Assembly (NCBI GenBank): GCA_039931165.1
Contig: JBDTSL010000001.1
Location: 66,214-130,213, forward strand
Length of the DNA: 64,000 nucleotides
DNA from: Candidatus Doudnabacteria bacterium
GTDB lineage: Bacteria > Patescibacteriota > Doudnabacteria > UBA920 > O2-02-FULL-48-8
Reading direction: 5' to 3'
Part shown: positions 38,887 through 62,641 of the stretch, one piece after another
Position numbering within the stretch: the first letter of the stretch is position 1
Layout of the letters: the number at the start of each line of letters is the position of its first letter
Notes under the pieces: generated by a model
The model's input: the letters and a program-made list of their open reading frames with translations, nothing else
Told to the model about the DNA's origin: nothing
Database searches by the model: none
Position numbers and translations under genes: made by a program

Positions 38887-39000
38887 AATAAAAAAATCCT
38901 AATATCTAAACTCTAAATCCTAAATAATATCCAAGCGCCAATTTTTCGAATTTTTAAAACCTTGGGATTTGTCATTTATTTAGAGTTTAGGATTTATGAT

Positions 39001-48495: not shown

Positions 48496-48630
48496 TTACC
48501 CCCACACCAAAAGAGCTTTTGTTTCGGCAAAGCCGAAACAGTTGGCTCTTGAATTATCGCTGTTGGACTATATTCAATCATTTTATATTCATAATTATTT
48601 TACTAAATAAGCTCGTTATGGTGTGGGGGT
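48496..48630. repeat. MITE/Correia-like element, copy 1 (TIRs ACCCCCACACCAAA.GAGCTT / AAGCTCGTTATGGTGTGGGGGT; internal TTTCGGCAAAGCCGAAA hairpin)
   Basis: Fills exactly the spacer from htrA's stop (TTA at 48631-48633) to ruvX's start codon (CAT at 48493-48495). About 90% identical to copies 2 and 3. Confidence 0.8.
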
Positions 48631-49887
48631 TTATTTGCTCTCCCCTAAGGTCACCGTCAGATCTTTGGTTTTGCCGCCGCTGAAAACGGTCATTTTCACA
48701 ACATCTCCCGGATTAAAATCTTTCAGGTAGGAAGCCAAGCTATGGTCTTGATTTAAATCCTTCCCATTGATCTGCTGGATTATGTCATGTTCCTTAAGCC
48801 CGGCTTTATCCGCGGCCGAACCCGGTAAAACTGCCGGCGAGCTGATCAAGTCTCCCGAAACGATCAGCGCGCCATGGTCGACGCTTAAATTATTTTGCTG
48901 CTGGATGCTTTGGTTGATCATGACATACCTCACTCCAAGGAACGGCTTGACGATCCTGCCGACTTTTTGGAAGCTGCTGATATCTTTTTTGATGTCATTT
49001 ACCGGAATGGCAAATCCGATCAATTGTCCCTGGGAATCCATGGCGGTGTTAATGCCTATCACCGAACCGCCTATATCCAGAAGCGGACCGCCTGAATTGC
49101 CCGGATTGATCGCCGCGTCGGTCTGGATCACGCCTTCCAGTTGTTCGGAATCCGAACCGGTCTCACCGCCGGCCGTTATCGTCCGGCCGATGCCGGAAAC
49201 AATGCCTTTGGTGACAGTATTGCTATATTGGCCCAAGGAATTCCCGATCGCTATGACAGTCTGGCCGATCCGGAGACCGGAGGAATCACCCAAAGGTAAA
49301 GTTGGCAATTGACTGGCGCTTATTTTCACCAAAGCCAGATCATTGACCGGGTCGCGCGACAATACTGTCGCGTCATATTTCTTGCCGTCATTGGTCAGTA
49401 CTGTATAAGTGGCGGTTGTGTCTGCAACCACATGCTTGTTGGTCATGATCAGCCCATCGGAAGATACGATAAATCCGGAACCGCCTCCTATCTGCTGGAT
49501 ATTCGGCGTATTGTTTTTTTGGTTCTGCTGATTGCGGTTCTGAAAAAACGGGTCAAACGAAAAGGGGCCAAAGTCAAAAGGCGAGGTAGAATATCCGGGA
49601 ATTTTATTAAGATCTTTGGAAATTATGATCGAAACAACCGCCGGACTGGCATTCTTGACCACGTCAACAATCCCCGACTGTTCGTTCACGGAAACGGTTT
49701 TTATATCGCTGCCGATGCCGGAGCCAAATGAAACGCCATTATGCAATAAAAACGTTGAACCAAAAACAGCTCCTCCGATGCCAAAAAGAAAACTGAGCAA
49801 AACCACCAAAGTAATCAGCTTAATACTGGATTCCCCTGCTTCGGGCAAATCCGAAGTCAGAGCTTTTTCATTATTTAACTTTGTCAT
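48631..49887 (-). CDS. htrA: HtrA/DegP-family serine protease with a PDZ domain
   Basis: Catalytic triad context (TNKHV, GNSGGPL) and a C-terminal PDZ domain. Confidence 0.85.
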   Translation of the reverse strand: MTKLNNEKALTSDLPEAGESSIKLITLVVLLSFLFGIGGAVFGSTFLLHNGVSFGSGIGSDIKTVSVNEQSGIVDVVKNASPAVVSIIISKDLNKIPGYSTSPFDFGPFSFDPFFQNRNQQNQKNNTPNIQQIGGGSGFIVSSDGLIMTNKHVVADTTATYTVLTNDGKKYDATVLSRDPVNDLALVKISASQLPTLPLGDSSGLRIGQTVIAIGNSLGQYSNTVTKGIVSGIGRTITAGGETGSDSEQLEGVIQTDAAINPGNSGGPLLDIGGSVIGINTAMDSQGQLIGFAIPVNDIKKDISSFQKVGRIVKPFLGVRYVMINQSIQQQNNLSVDHGALIVSGDLISSPAVLPGSAADKAGLKEHDIIQQINGKDLNQDHSLASYLKDFNPGDVVKMTVFSGGKTKDLTVTLGESK

Positions 49888-49963
49888 ATTTTTATTGTGA
49901 TTTCAAAGTATGCGCTATGTACAGAACCATTAGATTATAACATATTTATGCTCAAAGGCAAAA

Positions 49964-50731
49964 TTAGACCGATGTAAGGATCTCGCAGCCGGCTTCAGTG
50001 ACCAAAACCGTATGTTCAGAATGCGCCGACCACCCGCCATCCACGGTTTTTATGGTCCAATTGTCATTTGTAAAATAAACCTTCCAGCCGCCTTCATTTA
50101 CCATTGGTTCCACCGCGATGACCATGCCTTTTACGAGTTTGGTCCCTGTTTTGGTTCGGCCAAAGCAAGGCACTTCCGGTTCTTCATGGACCGCTTTGCC
50201 GACGCCGTGGCCGACAAGCTGACGCACTACCTGAAAATCATTTTCCTGGACCTTTGTCTCGATCGCAAACCCGACGTCACCCGTATAATTGCCGGCTTTG
50301 ACCGCGGAAAGTCCGGCGGCCAAAGATTCTTTTGCGGCTTCGATCAGCTTGCGGTGCTTCTCGGTCACATCTCCGACCGGCACCGTGATAGCGGCGTCGG
50401 TGAACAATCCTTTGTATTGAACGCCCAAATCCAGGCCCACGATATCGCCGTCCTTTAAAATTTTATCCTTGTGAGGAATGCCATGAACGACTTCGTCATT
50501 GACAGACACACAAAGGCTGGCCGGAAAAGGCGGGTCGCCCGGTTCCGACCGGTAATTTTTAAAAGCCGGAATTCCGCCTCTCTTCCTGATTTCCATTTCC
50601 GCCAGTTTATCCAAATCAAAGGCCGACACTCCCGGTTTCACCTGACTAGCCGCCAAGTTTAAAACTTCGGCTAGAATCTTGCCGCCTTTGCGCAAAATTT
50701 CAATTTCTTTTGGATCGCTTGTAATCATCAA
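49964..50731 (-). CDS. map: Methionine aminopeptidase, type I
   Basis: Pita-bread fold with the metal-ligand pattern (D..D..H..E..E). Confidence 0.9.
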   Translation of the reverse strand: MMITSDPKEIEILRKGGKILAEVLNLAASQVKPGVSAFDLDKLAEMEIRKRGGIPAFKNYRSEPGDPPFPASLCVSVNDEVVHGIPHKDKILKDGDIVGLDLGVQYKGLFTDAAITVPVGDVTEKHRKLIEAAKESLAAGLSAVKAGNYTGDVGFAIETKVQENDFQVVRQLVGHGVGKAVHEEPEVPCFGRTKTGTKLVKGMVIAVEPMVNEGGWKVYFTNDNWTIKTVDGGWSAHSEHTVLVTEAGCEILTSV

Positions 50732-51287
50732 TTTTCTTTTTCATATCCAGGGCCACTTTTATGATGTCTTGGTTGCCATTGATAAACTTGACCTTGTTGA
50801 ATTTCTGAAAATATTTAATGGTTTCCATAACTTGTTTTTTGTGATACTTGATCCTCGACTTGATATAGCCCATGTCCAAATCGCTTTTTTCACGGTCCCG
50901 GTGGAATGAGCGTTTTTTTATTAACGCATCAGGGAGCCTTATATAAAGAGCGAAAAAATCGCGTTTTTTCTTATCCAACATTTTTTTCAACAAAATAGCT
51001 TCGTTTTTCAGCCGCGGATTGCCGACAAACAATAAATTTTTACTTTTCGGGGCGCGCTCAACCGCCTTTTTTATAAAATCATCAATAATTTTTGAAGGCA
51101 CCGGCAAGCCCTTATCATAAGTCTGCTTAAATATTTTTTTATACCGGGGATTTTCACGCAACCGCCGCAAATACTCTCCTGATCTGATCGGTTTCAGATC
51201 ATAATAGTTCATAAGCAAATCAGCCTGGGTATCTTTGCCTGAGGCGGGTGATCCTAAGATAATTAAATCAAATCCTAATCGCTTCAT
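50700..51287 (-). CDS. Divergent adenylate kinase-like NMP kinase, second paralog
   Basis: P-loop GSPASGKDTQ resembles the Adk GxPGxGKGTQ. Basic, lysine-rich C-terminus. 32-nt overlap with map. Confidence 0.55.
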   Translation of the reverse strand: MKRLGFDLIILGSPASGKDTQADLLMNYYDLKPIRSGEYLRRLRENPRYKKIFKQTYDKGLPVPSKIIDDFIKKAVERAPKSKNLLFVGNPRLKNEAILLKKMLDKKKRDFFALYIRLPDALIKKRSFHRDREKSDLDMGYIKSRIKYHKKQVMETIKYFQKFNKVKFINGNQDIIKVALDMKKKIDDYKRSKRN

Positions 51288-51853
51288 TTCAGTTTCTCCA
51301 TAATGTCTTTATGGACATTCTCTACGGTCTGGTCGCCGTTTATATGGATGAGCATGCCTTTTAATTCATAAAAATCCCGGATCTTGGCGGTTTTCTTTTG
51401 AAATTCGTCAAAGCGCCTCTCCACCGCCAATGTGCTCACATCATCCGCGCGGCCTTCAGTTTTACTCCGAAGCGCCAAACGGCCGAGGAGTTTCTTTTTA
51501 TCGACATCCAACAGCATAATTTTTTGATCCGTCACTTTATGCTCGGCAAGAACTCCATTAAGCATTTCCACTTGTCCCGGGGTTCTTGGAAATCCATCAA
51601 CCACTAAACCTGATTTACCCATAACCTTTGATATGAATTGATCAAACACTTGCCGCGTTAATTCATCGGAAACAATTAACCCCTGTTCGATCGGGGCCTT
51701 GATTTGCGTTCCCAACGGCGTATCCTGCCTGGCAACTTCCCGCAAAGTATCCCCCATGCTGAAATAACCGTATCCGAGTTTATCGATCAGCAATTTGCTT
51801 TGCGTGCCTTTGCCGCTCCCCGGCGGCCCCATGAGAATAATAATCTGCTTCAT
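51284..51853 (-). CDS. adk: Adenylate kinase
   Basis: GPPGSGKGTQ P-loop and NMP-binding/LID regions. 4-nt overlap with the downstream paralog. Confidence 0.9.
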   Translation of the reverse strand: MKQIIILMGPPGSGKGTQSKLLIDKLGYGYFSMGDTLREVARQDTPLGTQIKAPIEQGLIVSDELTRQVFDQFISKVMGKSGLVVDGFPRTPGQVEMLNGVLAEHKVTDQKIMLLDVDKKKLLGRLALRSKTEGRADDVSTLAVERRFDEFQKKTAKIRDFYELKGMLIHINGDQTVENVHKDIMEKLK

Positions 51854-51940
51854 GTCACTATTATAACCTAAAATCTTGGTTTAACAAAAAGCCGCCTTTC
51901 GGCGGCTTCTACTTTCTATTTTCTACTTGCTATTTTCTAA

Positions 51941-53239
51941 TTAAAAATCCTCGTAATCTCTCATTACCATCTGGGCCTGGACCTGCTTCATAACTTCGAT
52001 CACCACGGATACCACGATCAGAAGAGATGTTCCGCCCAATGTCAGCGATTGGCTGTGGGTAAATGCCTGGACAATGTTCGGCAGAACCGCGATCAGGCCC
52101 AGGAAAATGGCGCCAACCAAGGTGATGCGGTTCAGAACTTTATACAAAAATTCCGCGGTCTGAAACCCGGGGCGCAGTCCCGGAATAAATCCGCCTTGTT
52201 TCTGGATATTTTCGGAGATTTCTTCGGGATTGAATACGATGGCGGTATAGAAGTAAGTGAAAGCCACGACCAAAATAAAATATATGATGCCCTGGTAGGT
52301 CTGGTTCTGGAAAAAATTATTGATGGCGGTAGCGGCGTGGGCGACAAACTCAGTCTTGGCATTGGAAAAGAAATTGGCGATAAGACCCGGAAAAAGCAAA
52401 ATGGAAATGGCAAAAATTATAGGGATCACCCCGGCTTGGTTTACTCTCAGCGGCAAATGAGTATTCACTCCGCCGTACATTTTATTGCCTCGGATCCTTT
52501 TCGCATAAGATACGGGGATATTCCTTTGAGCTTCGGTGATCAGTACAACTCCGCCGATGACCACCGCGGCCAACGCCACATAAGATAGCGCTGTGATCAG
52601 ATTCTGAGGGCTGATGGCCGAACCCGAGCCAGATAGGCTCAAATACGCCTGTTGCACCACGGTCGGAAGCCGAGCTACTATCCCGGCAAAAATGATCAGG
52701 GAAATACCGTTGCCGATTTTGAATTCGGAAATCATCTCGCCCAGCCAGAGCAGGATCATGGTACCAGTGGTAACGGAAAGCAAAGTCACAAACCATTGAA
52801 ATGGCGAAAAACCAGACGTAATATCGATGTTGCTGGTGCGAGAAAGCAAAATAATCGTGCCATATGCCTGGATCGGGGTCAAAGGAACTGTCAAATAACG
52901 CATGTACTGGTTGATCTTCATGCGTCCGGCCTCTCCCCCTTCTTTGGACAGCTCACCGAGCTTCGGAATGATGATCGTCAGCAGCTGGATGATGATCGAA
53001 GCGGTGATGTATGGTCCCACGCCGAGCATGACAATGGAAAAATTACGCAGTCCGCCTCCGGAAAAAATATCGAATAATCCCAGCAGCTGGTTGGTGTTCA
53101 GCAAAGCCCGTAAATTCGTCACGTCTATCCCGGGGATCGGAATGTGGGCAAGAACTCTGGTCGCGACCAAAAGCAGAGCCACGAAGATGATCCTGTTGCG
53201 AAGCTCTTTAACTTTCCAGATTTGAGAAATCCTAGACAT
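51941..53239 (-). CDS. secY: Preprotein translocase subunit SecY
   Basis: 10-TM SecY family similarity. Confidence 0.95.
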   Translation of the reverse strand: MSRISQIWKVKELRNRIIFVALLLVATRVLAHIPIPGIDVTNLRALLNTNQLLGLFDIFSGGGLRNFSIVMLGVGPYITASIIIQLLTIIIPKLGELSKEGGEAGRMKINQYMRYLTVPLTPIQAYGTIILLSRTSNIDITSGFSPFQWFVTLLSVTTGTMILLWLGEMISEFKIGNGISLIIFAGIVARLPTVVQQAYLSLSGSGSAISPQNLITALSYVALAAVVIGGVVLITEAQRNIPVSYAKRIRGNKMYGGVNTHLPLRVNQAGVIPIIFAISILLFPGLIANFFSNAKTEFVAHAATAINNFFQNQTYQGIIYFILVVAFTYFYTAIVFNPEEISENIQKQGGFIPGLRPGFQTAEFLYKVLNRITLVGAIFLGLIAVLPNIVQAFTHSQSLTLGGTSLLIVVSVVIEVMKQVQAQMVMRDYEDF

Positions 53240-53304
53240 AAATTAGGTTATAGGTTATAGGTTATAGGTTGTAGCCGGTTGAGCTATAACCTATCACCTA
53301 AAAC

Positions 53305-53748
53305 CTAGTTACTGATCTTTCCTCCGGCTTTCTGCACTTTCTCCAGCGCCGAAGCTGAAAACTTGATCTTTTCAAAATTCAAGGCTTTTTTAATTTCACC
53401 TGAAGCCAGAATTTTCACTTCAAGGCTTGCGGATTTGATAAGTCCTAAATTATATAAAACTTTCGGATTGACCTTATCGCCTGCCTTAAATTTATTGTTC
53501 AGATCATCAAGGCCCAAAACTGTAAGTTTGGTATTTCTGGAAGTAAAACCCCGGCGCTTCGGCAATTGGCGCTGCAACGGCATACGGCCGCCTTCGAACC
53601 CGACCGGGATCGAAGAGCCTGAACGGGCTTTTTGGCCTTTGGCGCCGCGGCCCGAATACGTTCCGTGGCCCGAACCAACACCGCGCCCGACAACTTTGCG
53701 GCGTTTGGTGGCTCCTCTATATGGTTTAAGCTCCGATAACTTCAACAT
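53305..53748 (-). CDS. rplO: 50S ribosomal protein L15
   Basis: Gly/Arg-rich N-terminus (RGVGSGHGTYSGRG). Confidence 0.9.
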   Translation of the reverse strand: MLKLSELKPYRGATKRRKVVGRGVGSGHGTYSGRGAKGQKARSGSSIPVGFEGGRMPLQRQLPKRRGFTSRNTKLTVLGLDDLNNKFKAGDKVNPKVLYNLGLIKSASLEVKILASGEIKKALNFEKIKFSASALEKVQKAGGKISN

Positions 53749-53751
53749 ATA

Positions 53752-54273
53752 TTACTCCGTTACTTTCTGGACAGCCTTACGGCTGGCAATTTCTTCTTTT
53801 GACCGCAGTTTAGACAAAGCCAAATATGTGGCCATGACATTATTCACTTTATTCGAAGAACCGAGCATTTTTGACAGGACGTTTCTGACACCGACCAAGT
53901 CCAGCACTTGCCTGATCGCCCCGCCGGCAATCACTCCGGTGCCGGGCTGGGCGGGCTTAAGGAATACCACCGAGGATTTATATTTGAACTTGATTTCGTG
54001 AGGGATCGTGTCATTCACTATTTTGATCGGGATCATTGTTTTCTTGGCAGCAGTCACGGCCTTATTCACGGCTTCCGAAACATCCGCCCCTTTCTTGAGT
54101 CCGATGCCGACCCGGCCTTTCTTGTCGCCGATCACGACCAGAGCTCGAAAACGCATGCGCTTGCCGCCGGCAACCACGCGAGTGACGCGCTTGATCTCTA
54201 CGATCTTCTGTTCAAAATCTTTCTTTCCGCCGTCGCCCTGTCCCCGGCCGCGGCCTTGTCTTTTAAATGCCAT
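53752..54273 (-). CDS. rpsE: 30S ribosomal protein S5 (no L30 gene between S5 and L15)
   Basis: S5 dsRBD and C-terminal domain similarity. Confidence 0.9.
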   Translation of the reverse strand: MAFKRQGRGRGQGDGGKKDFEQKIVEIKRVTRVVAGGKRMRFRALVVIGDKKGRVGIGLKKGADVSEAVNKAVTAAKKTMIPIKIVNDTIPHEIKFKYKSSVVFLKPAQPGTGVIAGGAIRQVLDLVGVRNVLSKMLGSSNKVNNVMATYLALSKLRSKEEIASRKAVQKVTE

Positions 54274-54277
54274 AGGT

Positions 54278-54622
54278 TTAAAACTCCAATCCAGCGGCTC
54301 TCGCCGCTTCCGCTAATTCTTTCACACGGCCATGGTATTGATAGCCGCCTCGGTCAAATACGATTTTTTTGATGCCTAGGGCCTTAGCTTTTTCCGCGGC
54401 CAATTTACCCACAGCGGCGGCGATTTCCGATTTCTTGCCCTTGCTTTTAACTTCAGAGCTTGAAGCAGCAGCCAGGGTTTTACCGGTTTCGTCGTCGATC
54501 AGCTGGATATAAATGTGCGAAAGTGAGCGAAAAACATTCAGCCTTGGCTTGGATGAACTGCCGATGACTTTAGCGCGAACCCTTCTCTGGCGCATTTTTC
54601 GTTGTGCTTGTCTGGTATTCAT
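54278..54622 (-). CDS. rplR: 50S ribosomal protein L18
   Basis: Start chosen at [14 protein letters not shown]. Confidence 0.9.
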
Positions 54623-54761
54623 ATTTACCCCCACACCAAACGAGCTTTTCTTCCGGCAAAGCCGAAACAATTTTCCCGTGATGTGTTAATTTCTTCGTAA
54701 TCTACTAATATTCTTATAATCATAATTATTTTACTAAATAAGCTCGTTATGGTGTGGGGGT
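54623..54761. repeat. MITE/Correia-like element, copy 2
   Basis: Exactly fills the rplF stop (TTA at 54762) to the rplR start (CAT at 54620-54622). TIRs and internal hairpin as in copy 1. Confidence 0.8.
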
Positions 54762-55343
54762 TTATTTCGCTCCCACGGCCTTCACGACTTTGCCGGCTTT
54801 GCGTCTGATGACCTCATCCGAATATTTAATACCTTTGCCTTTATAAGGCTCCGGTTGCCGGTGAGAACGCACAACCGCGGCAAATTGCCCGACCGCCTGG
54901 CGGTCAGAGCCCGTGATGGTAATCGTGTTTTTCTCGACTTTCGCTTCCAGCCCCTGCGGCACTTCCATTTCGATCGGGTGAGAATAACCCAGATTTAAAA
55001 CCAATTTTTTTCCGGAAATCGCCGCCTTATACCCCACACCGTTGATCTCCAAAATTTTTGTAAACCCGGTGGTGACCCCGACGATCATATTGTTGATCAG
55101 TGCCCGGAACAGTCCCCACAAGGCACGCTGCTGTTTATTCTCACTATCGCCTACGCTAACCAGCACTTCCGAGTCTTTTTGTTCGACTTTAACTTTCGGA
55201 TGCAACGCCAAACTCAGCTCTCCTTTAGGTCCTTTGACTTGCAGGATTGAGTCCTTTCCGCCGGAGGCGGATCCGCCTTCGGCGGAGATGTCAACTGTGA
55301 CACCCGCGGGCACTGGAATTGGTTTTTTTCCTATTCTGGACAT
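54762..55343 (-). CDS. rplF: 50S ribosomal protein L6
   Basis: Family similarity. Confidence 0.9.
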   Translation of the reverse strand: MSRIGKKPIPVPAGVTVDISAEGGSASGGKDSILQVKGPKGELSLALHPKVKVEQKDSEVLVSVGDSENKQQRALWGLFRALINNMIVGVTTGFTKILEINGVGYKAAISGKKLVLNLGYSHPIEMEVPQGLEAKVEKNTITITGSDRQAVGQFAAVVRSHRQPEPYKGKGIKYSDEVIRRKAGKVVKAVGAK

Positions 55344-55378
55344 AGTTTTTTAATCTTTAATCTAAAATCTTTAATCCT

Positions 55379-55777: not shown

Positions 55778-55917
55778 ATTTACCCCCACACCAAACGAGC
55801 TTCTGTTTCGGCAAAGCCGAAACAGTTTGCTCTTGAATTATTTTCTTCTCTGTTATATTCGATCATTCTTGTAGTCATAAATATTATTACTAAATAAGCT
55901 CGTTATGGTGTGGGGAT
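55778..55917. repeat. MITE/Correia-like element, copy 3
   Basis: Exactly fills the rpsN stop (TTA at 55918) to the rpsH ATG (CAT at 55775-55777). Confidence 0.8.
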
Positions 55918-56112
55918 TTACCAAGAAGCCTTAAATACGCCGGGGATCTCGCCGTTGGATGCTAGTTCCCGAAAACAAATGCGGCAAATATCAAAATCAC
56001 GCATATAGCCGCGCTTGCGGCCGCAGCGCCAACAGCGTCTGACCACGCGCGTCGAATACTTCGGGTTGGTGCGCGAACGGAATGATTTAATTGTCTGTGC
56101 TTTGGTTGCCAT
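55918..56112 (-). CDS. rpsN: 30S ribosomal protein S14, type Z (zinc-binding)
   Basis: [20 protein letters not shown] zinc ribbon; 64 aa. Confidence 0.9.
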
Positions 56113-56124
56113 ATCTTTGTAATT

Positions 56125-56664
56125 CTATTCTTTTTGAAACGGGAACCCCAGAGACTTTAATAATGCCAGCGCTTTCTTGTCGTCGTTGGTCGAGGTCTGG
56201 ATATTGACTTCAAGACCAAATACATATTCCAAATGTTCGCGGGTAGTTTCCGGAAAAACAATCTGCTCCCGAATACCGACATTATAATTGCCGTGGCCGT
56301 CAAATTTTTTCGGGGCAAGGCCCCGGAAGTCCCTCACGCGGGGCAATGAGACATTCACGAACTTATCCAAAAAATCATACATCCGGCGGCCCCTAAGTGT
56401 GACCATCAGCCCCACGACCTGGTTTTCGCGGATCTTGAATCCGGCAATTGATTTTTTCGCCATGGTCTTCACAGGTGCCTGTCCGGCGATATTTTTTACA
56501 TCTTCGATGATCGCCTCAAGCATTTTCGGATCTTTCAGCGTTTTGCCGACACCGACATTGATCACCACTTTCTTCACCATTGGCACAGCCATGGGATTGG
56601 TCAATCCGAAAGCTTTTTTCAGATCCGGCACCGATTTTTCTTTATAAATAGTCTTTAAATTCAT
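56125..56664 (-). CDS. rplE: 50S ribosomal protein L5
   Basis: Start chosen at MNLKTIYKEK. Confidence 0.9.
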   Translation of the reverse strand: MNLKTIYKEKSVPDLKKAFGLTNPMAVPMVKKVVINVGVGKTLKDPKMLEAIIEDVKNIAGQAPVKTMAKKSIAGFKIRENQVVGLMVTLRGRRMYDFLDKFVNVSLPRVRDFRGLAPKKFDGHGNYNVGIREQIVFPETTREHLEYVFGLEVNIQTSTNDDKKALALLKSLGFPFQKE

Positions 56665-56669
56665 AAGTG

Positions 56670-56990
56670 TTATCCTATGACCTTTCCGCATTGCTTACAT
56701 TTGCGCATATTCCCGGCAGCGGTCAGTTCATGACCGATCCTGGTCGGTTTACCACAATTAGAACAAATTAGCATAACTTTGGAAACATTCAAAGGAGCGG
56801 GGAGTTCCAGGCGCTGTCCTTTTTCACCTTGTTTTTTTGGCCGGGAAAAACGCACATGGATGTTCATACCCTCCACTGACAGGCGGCTTGTTTTCGGGAA
56901 CACTTCCAAAACCTTGCCGGATTTGCCTTTTTCCTTGCCGGCCAAGACTTTGACCATATCGCCTTTTTTAATGCTCATATATCGCGCCAT
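56670..56990 (-). CDS. rplX: 50S ribosomal protein L24 with a C-terminal CxxC...CxxC zinc-ribbon extension
   Basis: KOW N-terminus (KKGDMVKVLAGKEKGKSGKV). C-terminus CSNCGKP...CKQCGKV. Confidence 0.85.
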   Translation of the reverse strand: MARYMSIKKGDMVKVLAGKEKGKSGKVLEVFPKTSRLSVEGMNIHVRFSRPKKQGEKGQRLELPAPLNVSKVMLICSNCGKPTRIGHELTAAGNMRKCKQCGKVIG

Positions 56991-56991
56991 A

Positions 56992-57363
56992 TTATATTAC
57001 CTCTTCCGCCAGTGAAATTATCTTAGTGAAACCCATATCACGCAATTCGCGGGGAATCGGCCCAAAAATACGCGTACCGCGCGGTTCCTGGCTGTCCTTG
57101 CTGACAAGCACAGCGGCGTTATCGTCAAAACGGATATAAGAACCATCCGCGCGTCGGACCTCTTTATGGGTACGCACGATCACAGCATAAACTTTCTCGC
57201 CTTTTTTCACTTGGCCCTTAGGGCTGGCGATCTTTACTGAAGCTACGATCACATCACCCAAACCAGCGAAACGACGTTTATTTTTTCCATTCACGCTGAA
57301 AGCCGCGATTTCTTTCGCGCCAGTGTTATCCGCAACTTTTAATCTGGTTCTTAACTGTATCAT
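56992..57363 (-). CDS. rplN: 50S ribosomal protein L14
   Basis: Family similarity. Confidence 0.95.
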
Positions 57364-57431
57364 AAGGGTGGAATATAGAATATGGAATGTGGATTATGGA
57401 TTTTTAAATCCTATATTCCAAATTCTAAATT

Positions 57432-57668
57432 CTACATTCTATTAATTACTTTCCAGCTAACTGTCTTACTATAGGGCTTTGATTCTTCGATTACAACTTT
57501 GTCGCCAACGGAGAATTCCGTATCAGCGTGAGCCGGAAATTTTTTGAAAACCTTATAGCGCTTGTGATATTTCGGGTGGACTTTTACAATTTCAACCTTA
57601 ACTACCACAGTCTTGTTCATCTTGTTGGAGGTTACGGTGCCGGTTAATTTTCTCTTGATAGTTTCCAT
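57432..57668 (-). CDS. rpsQ: 30S ribosomal protein S17
   Basis: Family similarity. Confidence 0.9.
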   Translation of the reverse strand: METIKRKLTGTVTSNKMNKTVVVKVEIVKVHPKYHKRYKVFKKFPAHADTEFSVGDKVVIEESKPYSKTVSWKVINRM

Positions 57669-57670
57669 GA

Positions 57671-57853
57671 TTACTGTTCGTTGATTAAGGTTAAAATCCG
57701 GGCGATGTCGCGCTTGACCACTTTCAAACTATGCGTATTCTTCACTTCCCTGGAATGAAGCTTAAAAGCTAGATCACGCAGCTGTTCGCGCATCGTGGCC
57801 AGCTGCCTGACCTGTTCCGCCCGATTCATAGTTTTTAGTTCTTTAAACTTCAT
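57671..57853 (-). CDS. rpmC: 50S ribosomal protein L29
   Basis: Family similarity; 60 aa. Confidence 0.85.
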   Translation of the reverse strand: MKFKELKTMNRAEQVRQLATMREQLRDLAFKLHSREVKNTHSLKVVKRDIARILTLINEQ

Positions 57854-57858
57854 AAAAA

Positions 57859-58272
57859 TTAAATCTGATCCCTTAACACAAATCTGGTCTTGATCGGCAA
57901 TTTATGAGAGGCCAGCCTCATGGCTTCTGCCGCCTGCTCCGCAGTTACGCCGTCCATTTCAAACAGTACGCGTCCTTTTTGGACCACAGCCACAAAGTGG
58001 TCGACAGCGCCTTTTCCGCCGCCCATGGGCGATTCATTGCCGTGGGAAGTGATCGGCTTATCAGGAAAAATTCGGATCCAAACTTTACCGCCGCGCTGAA
58101 TATAGCGGGTCATGGCGCGCCTGGCAGCTTCGATCTGCCGGCTGGTGACCCAGCTATTTTCCATGGCCTTCAGGCCGAAGCTTCCGAATGCCACGAAATT
58201 GCCCGACATGGCTTTGCCGCTGGACCGTCCGCGATGATGCTTTCTATGTTTTACTTTTTTGGGAATTAACAT
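57859..58272 (-). CDS. rplP: 50S ribosomal protein L16
   Basis: Family similarity. Confidence 0.95.
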
Positions 58273-58279
58273 ATATTAA

Positions 58280-58939
58280 TTAAATTTTCAGCTTAGCTTT
58301 GCCGCCAGCGAAGACTTCCCCTTTATTGATCCAGACTTTCACCCCGATCGTGCCGTAAGTGGTAAACGCCGTGGCGCGGGCAAAATCAATGTTGGCTCTC
58401 AGGGTATGCAACGGCAGTTTTCCTTTGAACAATCTTTCGCTTCTGGCGATCTCTGCACCTCCCAGACGCCCGGCGCATTCGATTTTGACGCCCAACGCTC
58501 CGGCTTCCATGACCTGCTCGATCGAGCCTTTCATGGCGCGCCTGAAAGCAATGCGCTTTTCGATCTGGTCCACGATGTTTTGCGCGACCACCTGGGACTG
58601 CAAATTTACTTCCTTGACTTCCTCAATATTGATCTTCAGGTCAAGCTTCTTCAGTCCCAAATTTTTCAAGATCTTTTTCTTCAGATCTTCAATTCCAGCG
58701 CCGCCTTTACCGATGATCATCCCTGGTTTGGTGGTTTTCACTGTCACCACGAGATTTTGGCCGAAACGCTCGATATCAACGCGGACCAAGCCCGCTTTGC
58801 GCAGCTCATGCATCAAGAAGGCCCGGATCCTGGTATCCTGCTCAAGCCAAGCCGCAAAACCGGTTTTGGAAAGCCATTTCGACTTCCAAGTATCGGTAAT
58901 GTTCAGTCTTAAACTGCTGGCGTTTATCTTATTTCCCAT
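58280..58939 (-). CDS. rpsC: 30S ribosomal protein S3
   Basis: KH domain (GKGGAGIEDL) and C-terminal domain. Confidence 0.95.
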   Translation of the reverse strand: MGNKINASSLRLNITDTWKSKWLSKTGFAAWLEQDTRIRAFLMHELRKAGLVRVDIERFGQNLVVTVKTTKPGMIIGKGGAGIEDLKKKILKNLGLKKLDLKINIEEVKEVNLQSQVVAQNIVDQIEKRIAFRRAMKGSIEQVMEAGALGVKIECAGRLGGAEIARSERLFKGKLPLHTLRANIDFARATAFTTYGTIGVKVWINKGEVFAGGKAKLKI

Positions 58940-58943
58940 AAAA

Positions 58944-59528
58944 TTAAGGCCCGCTTCTCCGGTTGAATAATCGTCTCTTCAAATTAACCAAATTCTGCTT
59001 GATCTTCTGGCTGGACCTCGGCGCCTGCGCCGGTTTTACTTTATTCGCGGCTACTTCACCCGCTTTTGGTTCCACGATCCCGGCTTTATGCTCGGCTTCT
59101 TTGTTTATTTTCTCATCCGCGGTAAGCTTCGGCCTGATAGCAAAAATTGAGCGGGTTTTCTTATTTGTCCGTTCACGTATTCCCAAAACTACATTAATAT
59201 GGCTGGTTCTTTTCCGCTCCACGAAAGCGCGTCCCTGCGCTCTTGGCGCATAGCTTTTGAAAACCGGTCCCTGGTCTATCGTCACAGCTTTCACATACAA
59301 ATTTTCTTTCTTCATTTCAAAATTATGCACCGCATTGGCCACTGCCGAGTTTATGGCTTTGGCCAGAGGCTCTGCAGCATTTTTTGAAGAAAAGCGAAGC
59401 TGTTCCAGTGCGGTGTCAACCGGAGTTTGGCGGATCAAATTCGCCACCAGACGCAGTTTTTGCGGAGAGACGTGGATGTAGCGGGCGAATGCCTTAACCT
59501 CTATAACTTTTGATTTATCGATTGCCAT
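58944..59528 (-). CDS. rplV: 50S ribosomal protein L22 with a ~80-aa basic C-terminal extension
   Basis: Core L22 in the first ~115 aa, then a Lys/Ala-rich tail. Confidence 0.85.
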   Translation of the reverse strand: MAIDKSKVIEVKAFARYIHVSPQKLRLVANLIRQTPVDTALEQLRFSSKNAAEPLAKAINSAVANAVHNFEMKKENLYVKAVTIDQGPVFKSYAPRAQGRAFVERKRTSHINVVLGIRERTNKKTRSIFAIRPKLTADEKINKEAEHKAGIVEPKAGEVAANKVKPAQAPRSSQKIKQNLVNLKRRLFNRRSGP

Positions 59529-59530
59529 AT

Positions 59531-59875
59531 TTATTTTTTCGCCCCTTCAGCCGGTGCCTTAGCCGCTTCCAATGTCCGCTTCTCGGCTTCCTGGGCCGCG
59601 ATGGCTTCATCTTTCGCCATACGTCCGCCGTGGCGGTTAAATTTACGTGATGGAGAAAATTCGCCTAATTTGTGCCCGACCATATTTTCGGAGCAGTTCA
59701 CGGTAATAAAATTCTTGCCATTGTGGACGAGAAAAGTCAGCCCGACCATTTCCGGGAAAATTGTGGAATCCCTGCTCCAGGTCTTGATCTCTCCCTTTTG
59801 GCCAGGTTTAACCTTCTGGATCTTCTCCAGCAATTTCGGGTCTATAAACGGTCCTTTTTTCAGTGATCGTGACAT
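59531..59875 (-). CDS. rpsS: 30S ribosomal protein S19 with a short C-terminal extension
   Basis: Family similarity. Confidence 0.9.
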
Positions 59876-59939
59876 AAATTAGTTAAGATTCTTATCAACC
59901 AACAAAATTCCAATTGTAGCGACAAAAATCTTTTTCATA

Positions 59940-60770
59940 TTATTTCCTTCGCTTTACTATAAACTTGCTCGATGCTCTCTTCGGGTCGCGGGTTTTCACG
60001 CCCAAAGCATGCTTGCCCCATGGGGTTTTCGGATATTTCAACCCAATTGGGTTATGTCCTTCACCTCCGCCGTGCGGATGGTCGATCGGGTTCATGGCTT
60101 TGCCTCTGACAGATGGGCGGATGCCGCGGTGTCGCTGACGGCCAGCCTTACCGATTCTAACATACATCCAGTCAATATTGGAAACCTGTCCAATCGTGCC
60201 ATAGGCCTTGACCGGCACTTTGCGCAGTTCGCCTGAAGGAAGTTTCAAGGTCGTATACTCCGGTTCTTGCGCGGCAATGATGGCATATGTACCCGCACTG
60301 CGGGCAATCTGCCCGCCTGAATTGCCCAAAATCTCTATAGCATGGACGTTTGTGCCGATGGGAACGTTCTTCAGCATCATGCGGTTACCGGACTTCAGTT
60401 CGGCGCGTTCTGAGGTCAGTAAAATTTCCCCTACTTTCACGCCATCGGGAGCCAAAATATACCGTCTTTCACCGTCCTTGTAAGCCAAAAGAGAAATAAA
60501 AGCGCTTCGTCCGGGATCGTATTCCAAAGTTTGAACTTTAGCCGGTATATCGAGTTTGTCTCGCTTAAAATCAATCAATCTGGAGATTTGTTTATGGCCT
60601 CCGCCCTGATGGCGGATTGTGATCTTACCTTGATTGTTGCGACCTGCCGTGCGGCCGAAAGACTTCATCGAAGGCTTATGGGGCTTTACATTTTTCGTCA
60701 AAACCGAATAATCGGTCACCGAGTGGATGCGCCGACCTGCGGAAGTTGGTTTGTAAATTTTGATCGCCAT
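59940..60770 (-). CDS. rplB: 50S ribosomal protein L2
   Basis: Family similarity. Confidence 0.95.
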   Translation of the reverse strand: MAIKIYKPTSAGRRIHSVTDYSVLTKNVKPHKPSMKSFGRTAGRNNQGKITIRHQGGGHKQISRLIDFKRDKLDIPAKVQTLEYDPGRSAFISLLAYKDGERRYILAPDGVKVGEILLTSERAELKSGNRMMLKNVPIGTNVHAIEILGNSGGQIARSAGTYAIIAAQEPEYTTLKLPSGELRKVPVKAYGTIGQVSNIDWMYVRIGKAGRQRHRGIRPSVRGKAMNPIDHPHGGGEGHNPIGLKYPKTPWGKHALGVKTRDPKRASSKFIVKRRK

Positions 60771-60771
60771 A

Positions 60772-61224
60772 TTAGACTCCTTCGCTCAATCCTGCGATCC
60801 GCTCGCCTGACTTTAATGTTACGATCGCTTTCTTCCAATCCTGGGTCCGGCCTACTGATTTTCCTTGTCGACGGTTTTTACCTGAGACATTAATCATATT
60901 GACCGCCATAACGTGCACATCATATACTGCCTCGATCGCTTTTTTTACTTCGATCTTATTAGTAGATTTGGCGACTTTGAATACATAGCGGCCTATGGCT
61001 GAAAGCTGGTTGGTTTTTTCCGACAAATGATGGCGAAGCAGGATATGGTGGGCCCGGCCGGTGTTTTCCTTAAGAATTGCTTTTTGTTCAGCAGTTTTTT
61101 CCTCAGCCGGTTCTTTGACCATATCTAAAACATTCTCTTCCTTAGGAGCTTTTTTTCCGGCGGAGCCGGATCCGGCTTTGCCGGACTTTTCATCTTTCTG
61201 TTTAAATCTGTCTAGGATTCCCAT
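60772..61224 (-). CDS. rplW: 50S ribosomal protein L23, possibly with an N-terminal ~50-aa extension
   Basis: The L23 core begins near HHILLRHHLSEKTN. The true start is uncertain; an internal Met is possible. Confidence 0.8.
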   Translation of the reverse strand: MGILDRFKQKDEKSGKAGSGSAGKKAPKEENVLDMVKEPAEEKTAEQKAILKENTGRAHHILLRHHLSEKTNQLSAIGRYVFKVAKSTNKIEVKKAIEAVYDVHVMAVNMINVSGKNRRQGKSVGRTQDWKKAIVTLKSGERIAGLSEGV

Positions 61225-61248
61225 ATTCTATATTCCAAATTCTATATT

Positions 61249-61887
61249 CTACTTTAAATATGTCTTCTCGATCACCGGCAGGGCGTCTTTCAAAATCATT
61301 GTATCGTGATTCAATAAATCCAGAACATTCAGCTGGTTGGCCGGCAAAATCTTGACATGCTTTAGGTTTCTGGCGGCGCGAACCAAATCTTGATTGTGAG
61401 TCGATAAAACCAATATATATTTCTCACCCAAACCGGCCTTGGTGGCAAGTATTGCCAGTTTGACGGCCAAATCTTTGGTTTTGGCCGTCGTATCAAAACT
61501 TTCAACGATAACCAATTTATGATTATTGACCTTGTCGGTTAAAATGCTGAATAACGCTTTTCTTACTGCCGACTTATTCATTTTAAGCGACCAATTACGG
61601 GCAGAAGTCGGACCAAATGTAATTCCTCCATGCCGCCAAAGCGGCGAGCGGACCGATCCCGCGCGGGCGCGTCCGGTGCCTTTTTGCTTCCAGGGTTTTT
61701 TGCCCGAGCCGGCAACTTCCCCTCGATTTTTCGTATGGGCGATCGAAGGACGGGCGTTGTTTCTCTGCGTCCTGACCGCGGCGTGGACGAGGCTGGCGTC
61801 GATTCTATCAATGCCAAAAATCTTCGGGTTCAGGTCAAGTTCCGTGACTATTTCGCCTGTTTGATTGTAGACTGCTGTCTTGGTCAT
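61249..61887 (-). CDS. rplD: 50S ribosomal protein L4
   Basis: Family similarity. Confidence 0.9.
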   Translation of the reverse strand: MTKTAVYNQTGEIVTELDLNPKIFGIDRIDASLVHAAVRTQRNNARPSIAHTKNRGEVAGSGKKPWKQKGTGRARAGSVRSPLWRHGGITFGPTSARNWSLKMNKSAVRKALFSILTDKVNNHKLVIVESFDTTAKTKDLAVKLAILATKAGLGEKYILVLSTHNQDLVRAARNLKHVKILPANQLNVLDLLNHDTMILKDALPVIEKTYLK

Positions 61888-61888
61888 G

Positions 61889-62491
61889 TTAGTTTAATTT
61901 GGAAACAATATCTGGGTAATCCGTAAAGATTCCATCAACACCATAATTTTTTAACCGATAGAATTCTTCAGGAGTATTAATTGTGTATACATATACTCTC
62001 CAGCCCAATTCCCTAAATTTGGACATCCGATTTTCATTGACCAATTCCGGCGTGACCGAGATGGAAAAAATATTTACCTTTTTTAAAAAACTTATTACCA
62101 ATGGAAGGAGAATTCCGTATCGGGTGGCAATCACCAGACCTAGTTGGATATTTCCGTCCAAAGCCCTGATCTTCTTTAATACTAGTGGGTTCCAAGAAGT
62201 GATCAAAACCTTGTGCGCAAATCCTTTTATTGACTCTAAAACCTCGTTTTCAAACCCGCTTTCCTTGATCTCCAAATCCAGGGGCAAGGTTGCCATATGC
62301 AGTAGTTCGTCCAAACCCGTTGAATCGGAATAATCGTTTTTGCGATCATGCGATAAAACTATTTTACCGTCGGAGGTGCGTCGCAAATCGCATTCAAGCA
62401 TTTGCGCGCCGCTATCCTGAGCTTTTTTAAAAGAACGAATCGTATTCTCCGGCTCCAACCCCGCTGCTCCCCGATGCCCGATGATCAGCAT
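61889..62491 (-). CDS. Glycerophosphodiester phosphodiesterase-family protein (GDPD) embedded in the S10 operon
   Basis: IIGHRGAAGLEPENT (HR(G) GDPD motif) and the E..D metal ligands; 200 aa. Confidence 0.7.
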   Translation of the reverse strand: MLIIGHRGAAGLEPENTIRSFKKAQDSGAQMLECDLRRTSDGKIVLSHDRKNDYSDSTGLDELLHMATLPLDLEIKESGFENEVLESIKGFAHKVLITSWNPLVLKKIRALDGNIQLGLVIATRYGILLPLVISFLKKVNIFSISVTPELVNENRMSKFRELGWRVYVYTINTPEEFYRLKNYGVDGIFTDYPDIVSKLN

Positions 62492-62641
62492 ATACCCTCA
62501 CACCAAACGAGTTTAATTGCCCTGTTTGATAACATATTCGAGATTATTTAGTTTATTAAGTTAACTGCTTTTAAATAACCAATCCCGAATCGTATTTTTT
62601 ATCTAAAAAATACAATTCGAAACTCGTTCTGGTGTAGGGGT
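62492..62641. repeat. MITE/Correia-like element, copy 4 (diverged interior; TIRs kept with compensatory changes)
   Basis: Exactly fills the rplC stop (TTA at 62642) to the GDPD start (CAT at 62489-62491). TIRs are ACCCTCACACCAAACGAGTTT / AAACTCGTTCTGGTGTAGGGGT. Confidence 0.65.

Follow-up and report, generated by a model that had tools for sequence, protein, structure and literature searches.

Short inverted-repeat elements at gene junctions of a Doudnabacteria genome as probable MITEs of a Patescibacteria-wide GIY-YIG element family

The closest described system to the elements studied here is Ssn/NTS (Chenal et al. 2025, PMC11893778), whose authors note an IS-like NTS-ssnA-NTS layout and do not mention Patescibacteria. 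It comprises a single-domain GIY-YIG protein of ~90 aa, of CDD family cd10448, the gene of which is bracketed by inverted or hairpin-forming repeats, together with gene-less and mostly intergenic copies of the repeat; the cis element is a hairpin with oriented flanking sequence. The family described below is alike in these respects (its protein has 85 aa), but a complete hairpin stands on each side of the Ssn gene, whereas here a single long inverted repeat is split into two halves, one per side. The present hosts are Patescibacteria, and the nearest solved or annotated relatives of the present protein are UPF0213 (1zg2, YazA) and Slx1. The present family, unlike Ssn, has clear and documented target duplications, empty sites and insertion at start codons. 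The SRM motif HGTCWY..RNCYNB, which in the Ssn system flanks the gene and is dispersed through the genome, was searched with a regular expression that recovers NTS itself and was found in 0 of 88 elements with flanks and nowhere in the window, i.e., the whole 64-kb stretch of Candidatus Doudnabacteria DNA that was analyzed. No description of the present family was found in the literature.

Correia elements (CREE/NEMIS) of Neisseria have a stem of terminal inverted repeats (TIRs) that is cut by RNase III, and they can alter downstream expression. They resemble the window repeats as ORF-less TIR elements of ~100–150 bp that lie in or between genes, are co-transcribed, and have TIRs that form a long stem. 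Correia elements duplicate TA, whereas the duplication here is the 4-bp T(G/A)AA, and the sequence is unrelated and from another phylum. The term 'Correia-like', applied to the window repeats in a first-pass annotation, is apt as an analogy (a TIR stem inside operon transcripts), but not with regard to sequence, target duplication or host. Membership was rejected on the 4-bp duplication and on arms of CCCCCACACCA(T)AACGAGCTT, compared without alignment to the Correia consensus. We know of no autonomous partner of Correia elements, whereas there is a candidate partner here, and strict orientation and start-codon precision are not Correia features.

In REP/BIME-RAYT and IS200/IS605, as in the present family, a small dispersed hairpin repeat is associated with a single small gene of nuclease type that has these repeats on both sides, and insertion is strand-specific and oriented, with subterminal hairpins. 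RAYT and TnpA are HUH Y1 enzymes, and IS200/IS605 elements insert without target duplication. Membership in this group was rejected, the sole ORF here being GIY-YIG and not HUH Y1, and a duplication being present in 48 of 85 sites. GIY-YIG homing endonucleases, whether free-standing or intron-borne (I-TevI, Seg proteins), have the same catalytic domain and are likewise selfish genes between conserved genes, transcribed with the host operon. Enzymes of the I-TevI/Seg type have ~250 aa, bind DNA through a distinct domain, and each home to a single cognate site; a homing endonuclease gene was rejected in view of the 85-aa single domain, the 85 sites, the TIRs, the target duplications and the MITE derivatives. 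A survey of CPR rRNA genes (PMC11270868) also reports small GIY-YIG ORFs, in insertions that belong to neither the group I nor the group II introns. Neither inverted repeats nor MITEs are mentioned in it, and none of the 18 loci screened here has an element within an rRNA gene.

The window contains four elements of 131–146 bp with 20-bp TIRs, at the HtrA|RuvX, L6|L18, S14|S8 and L3|GDPD junctions (Table 1). All four loci and, by Pfam, all flanking genes are as given in the first-pass annotation, but the sense strand of the host genes and of the four elements had to be corrected to minus. When up to 3 mismatches are allowed, the arm pattern CCCCCACACCAAACGAGCTT has exactly 4 matches in the window against 0.02 expected, and GGTGTGGGGGT, with up to 1 mismatch, matches exactly the 8 arms (0.47 expected). 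A search of the 64-kb window using nhmmer and a family model found no fifth copy. The arms, rightly described at first pass as reverse complements, pair over 20 positions: a stretch of 11 bp, one bulged nucleotide in the 5' arm (gene sense), and a further 9 bp. The element limits had included surplus bases, which are part of a direct repeat of 4 bp that reads TAAA in the sense of the genes; this duplication bounds copies 1–3, and its upstream member contains the upstream stop codon. Identity among copies 1–3 is 81–84% end to end and 74–80% in the interior, below the ~90% first estimated, and the copies are therefore not recent. Copy 4 has the arms alone in common with them; its interior (~51%) bears no relation to theirs. 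Its arms are CCCCTACACCAGAACGAGTTT and AAACTCGTTTGGTGTGAGGG, with one compensatory pair (GAGTTT/AAACTC), and in copy 3 the 5' terminal base is T in place of C. The internal hairpin, reported as perfect in copies 1–3, is so in copies 1 and 3, but has one G.U/C.A position in copy 2. Folding of each copy, as suggested at first pass, predicts strong RNA structures (-40 to -53 kcal/mol, z -5.5 to -9.4). The window elements contain no ORF, GIY-YIG or otherwise.

Table 1. Positions of the elements, their target-site duplicates and two empty sites in the window; features are described in gene sense.
Feature	Position	Strand	Remark
MITE copy 1, 131 bp	48499..48629	-	between htrA stop and ruvX start; flanking genes by Pfam
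Copy 1 downstream target-site duplicate TAAA	48495..48498	-	final A also begins the ruvX ATG
Copy 1 upstream target-site duplicate TAAA	48630..48633	-	includes htrA stop codon TAA
Copy 1 5' arm CCCCCACACCA-T-AACGAGCTT	48609..48629	-	gene sense
Copy 1 3' arm AAGCTCTTTTGGTGTGGGGG	48499..48518	-	gene sense; 1 mismatch to partner arm
Copy 1 subterminal hairpin CTGTTTCGGC-TTT-GCCGAAACA(A)	48519..48541	-	adjoins 3' arm
MITE copy 2, 133 bp	54628..54760	-	between rplF (L6) stop and rplR (L18) start
Copy 2 downstream TAAA duplicate	54624..54627	-	precedes T and the L18 ATG
Copy 2 upstream TAAA duplicate	54761..54764	-	includes L6 stop TAA
Copy 2 subterminal hairpin, imperfect	54649..54670	-	one G.U position in gene sense
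MITE copy 3, 134 bp	55783..55916	-	between rpsN (S14) stop and rpsH (S8) start
Copy 3 downstream TAAA duplicate	55779..55782	-	precedes T and the S8 ATG
Copy 3 upstream TAAA duplicate	55917..55920	-	includes S14 stop TAA
Copy 3 subterminal hairpin CTGTTTCGGC-TTT-GCCGAAACAG, 10 bp	55803..55825	-	directly adjoins 3' arm
MITE copy 4, 146 bp, diverged	62495..62640	-	between rplC (L3) stop and GDPD-gene start
Copy 4 upstream TAAA	62641..62644	-	includes L3 stop
Copy 4 downstream partner TATA	62491-62494	-	3 of 4 bases agree with TAAA
Copy 4 internal hairpin, 20 bp, AT-rich	62581..62624	-	adjoins 5' arm, unlike copies 1–3
Empty site, L18 stop / S5 start, TAA-ACCT-ATG	54271..54280	-	orthologous junction filled in L015
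Empty site, L22 stop / S3 start, TAA-TTTT-ATG	58937..58946	-	orthologous junction in L005/L055: TAAA-(element)-TAAATTTTATG

Across Patescibacteria the same arms usually bound a 301-bp unit whose sole ORF encodes a stand-alone GIY-YIG nuclease of 85 aa. It consists of a 21-nt 5' arm, the 85-codon ORF with a 10-bp subterminal hairpin in its 3' end, and a 20-nt 3' arm. The window repeats are probably non-autonomous MITEs of a Patescibacteria-wide family of which this unit is the full-length form; for the window's own lineage, the autonomous partner is a candidate only, drawn from sequences of other Patescibacteria. Of this unit, the window copies keep both arms, the subterminal hairpin and what is left of the beginning of the ORF; they have no ORF. 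In the protein, Pfam recognizes GIY-YIG (PF01541, E 4.5e-15) alone, and profile matches in the PDB are to UPF0213 (7e-13) and SLX1 (3e-4). An AF2 model predicts a confident single domain (pLDDT 96.9) that matches Slx1 at TM 0.64 and rmsd 2.2. The stand-alone GIY-YIG family numbers about 5,000 clusters (50% identity) at E<=1e-10, annotated merely as 'GIY-YIG nuclease family protein', and we know of no function assigned to the UPF0213 relatives.

A dN/dS of 0.14 (dS 1.3) indicates that the ORF is under strong purifying selection. The arms are nearly invariant and 98.8% of their cells in long elements are paired, an apparent conservation that is inflated because the collection scans needed one exact arm. 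Choosing loci by the protein alone tests the association independently of this ascertainment, and inverted arms with the core CCCC(C/T)CAC were found in 6 of 6 such loci; the association of arms and protein holds down to 56% protein identity. The 3' hairpin of the parent is retained in MITEs, five of its ten pairs covary in long elements, and compensatory changes occur among copies of the window subfamily. On one contig (L132), a full-length GIY-YIG unit and an ORF-less form are found together.

Nearly all of the 85 distinct insertion sites in Patescibacteria lie exactly at gene starts or stop/start junctions. A perfect 4-bp repeat is present in the 48 sites mentioned above (permutation mean 24, maximum 33) and missing in 37. 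The duplicated bases are mostly TGAA inside ATGAA, the target being T(G/A)AA, and rare duplications (TGCG, TGTA, TTTA, TTGA, TTCA) co-vary on both sides. In 48 of the 85 sites a host ORF starts at the junction, where the terminal G of the element and the downstream duplicate rebuild a GTG start; in the window class, an ATG is left 4–6 nt after the arm. The upstream duplicate preserves the upstream stop codon (TAA or TGA). Elements are co-directional with the downstream gene at a ratio of 56:1 (25:0 for long elements, 31:1 for ORF-less ones). This orientation is fixed despite both element ends finishing in the same GGGGG. In one sublineage, located at tRNA-Ala, the duplication is 11 bp long.

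The window elements are mobile. The L18|S5 and L22|S3 junctions, empty in the window, are filled in L015 and L005, respectively, while L3|GDPD is filled in the window and empty in L005; S8|L6 and L24|L5 also differ in occupancy among the window, L005/L055 and L015. No insertion site is common to the window, L005 and L015 genomes, and the window counterparts of sites occupied in the relatives' operon are cleanly empty. The first-pass annotation had proposed a mobile MITE at stop/start junctions and a search for further copies and empty sites in relatives. Both were found in related Doudnabacteria, and the proposal is supported by these sites together with the 4-bp duplications, the 85 sites and the protein-coding parent with the same arms. 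In one MAG, two 100%-identical 303-bp copies lie at unrelated sites, with identity stopping exactly at ATGAA...GTGAA, which is recent movement. The nuclease proteins P0067 and P0121, each identical across many samples, occupy one site each, and activity is therefore low.

We infer that the GIY-YIG nuclease drives this movement. It would act in trans and recognize the arms, possibly paired as a hairpin or cruciform, or as ssDNA together with the subterminal hairpin; such recognition would parallel that of the structure-specific Slx1 and the ssDNA-specific Ssn enzymes. The nuclease would cut at the boundary of element and target duplicate, and completing excision, as well as insertion at a cut T(G/A)AA, would fall to host ligation or repair. 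If the cut were staggered by 4 nt and left non-palindromic ends, it would account for the duplication as well as for the fixed orientation. A bolder claim, to which we give slightly less than even credence, is that the 301-bp unit is a fully autonomous transposon with the 85-residue GIY-YIG nuclease as its only protein. No smaller self-contained DNA transposon would then be known, and its mechanism would be of a new class, distinct from the DDE, HUH, serine, tyrosine and Cas1 types. Such a transposon would insert at T(G/A)AA where genes start, always in the same orientation, rebuild the start codon with its own last base, and spawn MITEs in essential operons of the reduced Patescibacteria genomes without breaking them.

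GIY-YIG enzymes are hydrolytic nucleases, and we know of no strand-transfer activity among them and of no GIY-YIG transposase. This leaves some room for an unlikely alternative, in which another enzyme (host-encoded, or an unlinked transposase or recombinase) moves the TIR element and the GIY-YIG gene is cargo or a homing-type helper that cuts empty sites. It would also accord with the results that no GIY-YIG ORF was found in the 64-kb window and, in an exact-arm scan of GTDB genomes, no full-length copy in two Doudnabacteria MAGs with the same MITE subfamily; the 11-bp duplication at tRNA-Ala misfits a 4-nt staggered cut. However, the 301-bp unit has no room for anything else, its arms accompany the protein at every protein-selected locus and down to the identity given above, the ORF is strongly constrained, and what was copied from one site to another was the 303-bp unit and nothing more.

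Eight of 33 long elements have broken or inverted ORFs, and short forms such as L010 keep the 3' end of the ORF, as would be seen if short copies were full-length GIY-YIG elements decayed in situ and the short form had never moved. We consider this very improbable, as the same deletion derivative, with a homologous interior (74–80% identical) and the same hairpin, is found at seven junctions in three genomes. Independent deletions would not be expected to converge on one architecture, and the derivative therefore moved as a MITE. MITE subfamilies of 127–128 nt, 139 nt and 147–148 nt also recur at different sites.

An origin as a host-recruited structured spacer RNA kept for operon regulation (an RNase III processing site or translational coupler), the other reading offered at first pass, would suit the strong stem, the exact stop/start position, the operon sense of all copies and the covarying subterminal hairpin, but is scarcely credible, as occupancy of orthologous junctions is not conserved, target duplications are present, the same arms surround a nuclease gene in distant classes, Rfam gave no match at the gathering threshold or E<=1, and arm mismatches have neither a G.U bias on the mRNA strand (25 vs 34) nor an excess over A.C. 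Reclassification as a known regulatory leader, also raised at first pass, found no footing in Rfam; a ribosomal-protein operon leader or autoregulatory RNA was rejected on this result and on positions that vary among relatives.

For the elements as mobile MITEs, secondary effects at the RNA level are possible. In the operon transcript, the predicted 20-bp stem would draw the stop of the upstream gene close to the start of the downstream one, which may keep their translation coupled, and RNase III could plausibly cleave it; these properties would explain why insertions are tolerated in an essential operon, although any such benefit is speculative. An SD-like motif is found in just 13 of 73 window genes.

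If the nuclease moves the element, the two form a minimal transposition system, about 300 bp long and with a single tiny protein, that belongs to none of the known transposase classes. The large family of stand-alone GIY-YIG proteins would then have a selfish-element origin, complementing the Ssn/NTS story in Proteobacteria. The design of the parasite suits essential, tightly coupled operons in genomes with almost no spare DNA, where it would be tolerated because the upstream stop survives in the duplication, the start is restored by the terminal G, and the stem links the two. A nuclease this small, specific for sequence or structure and acting at a defined site, could also be a useful tool. 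The repeats break assemblies and mislead gene callers. Many arms fall at contig ends.

The four repeat loci reported by the first-pass annotation are present in the window, and the genes named there as their neighbours (HtrA/RuvX, L6/L18, S14/S8 and L3/GDPD) were confirmed by Pfam, while the element limits were corrected to those in the table. Because the host genes lie on the minus strand, as do 67 of the 73 predicted genes of the window, the element is described here in gene sense. Each copy follows the upstream stop TAA and an A, and consists of CCCCCACACCA-T-AACGAGCTT, an AT-rich interior and AAGCTCGTTTGGTGTGGGGG, after which come TAAA and, 0-2 nt away, the ATG of the next gene. The two arms (terminal inverted repeats) pair over 11 bp, a one-base bulge and 9 bp. 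In copies 1-3 the interior is followed by a hairpin, CTGTTTCGGC-TTT-GCCGAAACAG; it had been called perfect in all three, which holds except for one non-Watson-Crick position in copy 2. Identity among copies 1-3, put at ~90% before, was measured at 81-84%, and copy 4 has only the arms in common with them. Folding energies of the whole copies range from -40 to -53 kcal/mol (z -5.5 to -9.4).

Copies of the mobile element in the window (window positions)
Feature	Position	Strand	Location
MITE copy 1	48499-48629	-	HtrA/RuvX junction
MITE copy 2	54628-54760	-	L6/L18 junction
MITE copy 3	55783-55916	-	S14/S8 junction
MITE copy 4	62495-62640	-	L3/GDPD junction

With up to three mismatches allowed, the arm 20-mer has four matches in the window (0.02 expected), and the matches of the arm-end 11-mer are exactly the eight arms (0.47 expected); an nhmmer family model found no fifth copy in the 64 kb. 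Rfam gave nothing relevant for the whole window at the gathering threshold or for 48-64 kb at E<=1, and a tRNA scan found none in the window. A promoter and terminator scan returned the element hairpin only as an antisense terminator-like site, with total counts no different from those in shuffles, and the idea of a promoter/terminator cassette was dropped.

The proposal that these are mobile miniature elements (MITEs, here the ORF-less form) is supported by orthologous junctions that are filled in some relatives and empty in others. Scanning for exact arms yielded 17 loci from GTDB genomes and 116 from JGI metagenomes; one exact arm was required, which biases the set toward canonical arms, and MAG co-assemblies may mix strains. 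Three of these loci, L005 and L015 (both labelled Candidatus Doudnabacteria) and L055, contain the orthologous ribosomal-protein operon at ~73% nucleotide identity. They carry the same MITE subfamily at other junctions, namely L22/S3 in L005 and L055, and L18/S5, S8/L6 and L24/L5 in L015, all of which are empty in the window. The empty sites read TAA-ACCT-ATG at L18/S5 and TAA-TTTT-ATG at L22/S3, and the filled L22/S3 site of L005 reads TAAA-element-TAAATTTTATG. In the reverse case, ...CCTAGCATGCTGATCATCGG in L005 corresponds to ...CTAAA-element-TATATGCTGATCATCGG in the window. No insertion site is common to the window, L005 and L015, so the insertions are younger than the divergence of these three genomes. 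Seven copies of the subfamily are homologous along their whole length; the short form itself has therefore spread, and independent decay of longer elements is rejected as the origin of these copies. Recent duplication of the ~303-bp unit into another location is directly evidenced in a single MAG, CAYNVZ01, where two contigs have copies at unrelated sites; these are 100% identical, and the identity is bounded exactly by ATGAA-C and G-TGAA. The four copies in the window are old. An arm scan of IMG/VR viral contigs gave no match, and thus no evidence of phage carriage, and a plasmid collection contained only distant YazA-type homologues.

At the majority of the other loci these two arms are ~281 nt apart and enclose a single 85-codon ORF that encodes a GIY-YIG domain (PF01541, E 4.5e-15). 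A 34-member profile searched against the PDB matched the UPF0213 protein BH0048 (E 7e-13), EF2693 and then SLX1 (E 3e-4). The AlphaFold model (pLDDT 96.9) can be superposed on 1zg2 as well as on the nuclease domain of Slx1 (TM 0.64, rmsd 2.2 A, 35% identity), and the nuclease positions GIY, YIG, Arg, His-Asn and Glu are invariant. The ORF is intact in 25 of 33 non-identical long elements and broken in 8, and it is under purifying selection (median dN/dS 0.14). With a dS of 1.3 synonymous sites are saturated, while the arms are nearly invariant. Some of this invariance comes from ascertainment, one exact arm having been required in the scans; when the bias was removed by picking loci on protein similarity alone, inverted arms with the core CCCC(C/T)CAC were present in all six, linking arms to nuclease. 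In diverged members the inner arm sequence changes jointly on both sides, for example CCCCCACACCAATTAT/ATAATTGGTGTGGGGG and CCCCTCACACGAAAACGACC/GGTCGTTTCGTGTGAAGGGG. Taken together, the four repeats are very probably mobile MITEs of this GIY-YIG/TIR family.

Searches for the nuclease family with two queries returned 321 and 926 clusters at 90% identity, nearly all of 84-86 aa, from Patescibacteria and named just 'GIY-YIG nuclease family protein' or 'putative endonuclease'; at 50% clustering there were 5,033 representatives with E<=1e-10. No GIY-YIG gene was found in the 64-kb window by tblastn, nor an autonomous copy in two related MAGs by exact-arm scan. Identical nuclease genes at multiple sites were not seen for the protein entries P0067 and P0121, each of which occurs at a single site. 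Many homologues (P0220-P0365) are 105-130 aa long with the GIY-YIG domain starting from about residue 25, the pattern that gene callers would produce by beginning at the displaced ATG of the host gene and continuing across the 5' arm. One long element has its interior, with the ORF, inverted relative to the asymmetric arms (L131:12474-12774), and another contains an additional internal arm-like hairpin (L066:71-375). In one Parcubacteria population (L144-L153, ~2400-2930) the position 3' of EF-P varies by sample, and is occupied by either a minus-strand 23S_rRNA_IVP-family gene or a 114-aa GIY-YIG gene. The contig DATEXU010000218.1 (L008 vs L016), binned as Thermodesulfobacteriota, has the same element and 25-nt flanks as Nealsonbacteria MHLY01000016.1, and this comparison of element and flanks suggests a mis-binned Patescibacteria contig.

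All sources together gave 110 paired elements at 85 distinct sites. Their lengths are 297-305 nt (48 elements), 117-150 nt (~45) or, for nine bare hairpins, 57-72 nt, and a few have other lengths. Insertion duplicates 4 bp of a T(G/A)AA target. A perfect 4-bp direct repeat stands beside the terminal C...G pair at 48 sites (permuted flanks give 24 on average and 33 at most), and the duplicated sequences are TGAA (36), TAAA (5), TTTA (2), TGTA (2), TTCA (1), TTGA (1) and TGCG (1). The co-variation of the rare duplications on both sides shows that the repeat derives from the target and not from the element. The remaining 37 sites are without a perfect repeat. Insertion is also precise with respect to gene starts: at 48 of the 85 sites the junction coincides exactly with the start of a host ORF (50 codons or more). 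There, the terminal element base (G, or A in the T...A variant) and the TG of the duplicate form GTG or ATG, and the upstream duplicate represents the original ATGAA. At 16 further sites, window class included, the start is at most 25 nt away. The upstream duplicate often contains the stop of the upstream gene, either TAA or the TGA of an ATGA overlap. None of 18 loci screened had an insertion in rRNA genes.

Elements are co-directed with the downstream gene, in the ratio 25:0 for long and 31:1 for ORF-less ones. As both element ends terminate in the same GGGGG, repair of the start codon is not sufficient to account for the bias of the ORF-less form, which reflects either strand-asymmetric insertion chemistry or RNA-level selection on the interior. 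Three loci hold tandem elements, a 67-nt bare hairpin followed by a MITE of 143-145 nt (L032:421-636, L051:2889-3106, L075:46-213), with one shared TGAA between the two, as though the second had inserted into the duplicate left by the first. A diverged GIY-YIG element sublineage with arms CCCCTCACTTGGG or CCCCTCACACGAAAACGACC (L154:1130-1550, L157:1130-1550) lies directly 5' of tRNA-Ala(TGC); its 11-bp duplication, GGGCCCTTAGC, is of the tRNA 5' end, and the first bases of the tRNA come from the element's terminal Gs.

Two structures are conserved within the element. Cells of the arm stem, in gene sense, comprise 1649 Watson-Crick, 25 G.U and 34 A.C combinations; with no strand bias in the latter two counts, nothing points to selection of the stem specifically as mRNA. 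Compensatory double changes are seen: seven elements, belonging to three or more types, have T-A in place of the terminal C-G pair, and other cases are GAGTTT/AAACTC (window copy 4), CAAG/CTTG (L132) and CCCC(A)GACACC/GGTGTCGGGG (L015). The second feature is a ~10-bp hairpin that ends 0-2 nt before the 3' arm, within the 3' end of the ORF in long elements; in these, pairing holds in 81.5% of cells, and changes on both sides are seen for 5 of the 10 pairs. Among 500 shuffles, two of five whole-structure measures were matched by none and two by 1-2, and the further-pair-types measure was matched by 32. RNAalifold on long elements recovers the closing stem only, the subterminal hairpin having been specified by hand, and support for the hairpin is moderate. 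Its uninterrupted stem is kept in ~42% of MITEs, including window copies 1-3, and L015 shows the compensatory variants GTTTTGGC/GCCAAAAC and GTTTTAG/CTAAAAC. MITEs also retain AATTATG, a remnant of the ORF start, and together with the retained hairpin this shows that they derived from the long form via internal deletion.

As to mechanism, we lean towards the nuclease itself mobilising the MITEs. Ssn nucleases, small GIY-YIG enzymes, are specific for single-stranded hairpin-containing DNA, which they cut at a fixed distance (PMC11893778). Because the nearest characterised relatives are structure-specific (Slx1) or specific for ssDNA hairpins (Ssn), the nuclease is proposed to act on extruded or single-stranded DNA, where it would recognise either the paired arms or the 3' arm with the subterminal hairpin and would cut at the boundary between element and duplication. 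Cuts with a 4-nt stagger at donor ends and at the T(G/A)AA target would create non-palindromic cohesive ends, and host ligase would join the fragment in one orientation only, regenerating the duplication and permitting precise excision. Such a model is compatible with a nuclease lacking strand-transfer activity, and leaves unexplained the longer duplication of the tRNA-Ala sublineage and the sites without a perfect repeat. On the transcript, the 20-bp stem would place the upstream stop beside the downstream start and would be opened by a terminating or leader-translating ribosome; such an arrangement may preserve coupling and account for why insertions into an essential operon are tolerated. 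In Correia elements RNase III acts on stems of such length, and the present stem is of substrate length. A role of the 3'-arm GGGGG as a Shine-Dalgarno sequence is weakened by the presence of an SD-like motif in just 13 of 73 window genes.

The closest described system is Ssn/NTS, in which the gene for a ~94-aa single-domain GIY-YIG protein is flanked by hairpin repeats, which occur in dispersed form as well, an IS-like layout remarked by its authors (PMC11893778). The present elements differ in that the SRM motif of that study is absent, a single long inverted repeat is split into halves on the two sides, the protein is closest to UPF0213 and Slx1, and the hosts are Patescibacteria, of which PMC11893778 makes no mention. 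Correia elements, REP/RAYT with IS200/IS605, and GIY-YIG homing endonucleases each have some features in common with the family, but their defining features were not found in it. In a CPR survey, rRNA insertions that are not introns were noted to contain GIY-YIG ORFs 'outside the context of homing', and inverted repeats were not mentioned (PMC11270868). No description of the present GIY-YIG/TIR element or of a CPR MITE was found in the literature, including a MITE survey of 183,232 genomes. We place the family among MITE/IS-like elements, with a small GIY-YIG nuclease of the Ssn-like kind; a categorically new reading, that of a GIY-YIG transposase in the smallest autonomous transposon, is possible but tentative.

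Other repeats occur in the window and its relatives. L055 (795-3280), a related Doudnabacteria-like contig, has a different ~180-nt repeat at S14/S8, S8/L6 and L18/S5 (e.g. 3085-3262, minus strand), with five hairpins (-81.8 kcal/mol, z -11.9) and no Rfam match; its S8 gene is duplicated, with the repeat between both. In this lineage, junctions of the ribosomal operon seem to serve generally as insertion sites of small structured repeats. A glycerophosphodiester phosphodiesterase (GDPD) gene lies between rplC (L3) and rplD (L4) of the S10 operon in the window (61889-62491), as in L005. Long direct repeats at 33889-36006, with a 283-nt pair of 97% identity (34270-34552 / 35307-35589), a 103-nt pair and families of 32-39 nt, suggest tandem paralogous genes. 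Within a minus-strand ORF, a 12-nt periodic repeat of CAACTCTAGTTT-like units (41540-41647) probably encodes a 4-residue periodic peptide. Short AT-rich repeats resembling TTCTAAAT / GATTAAAG form the intergenic spacers at 57398-57438, 61215-61255, 38886-38926 and 55344-55378.
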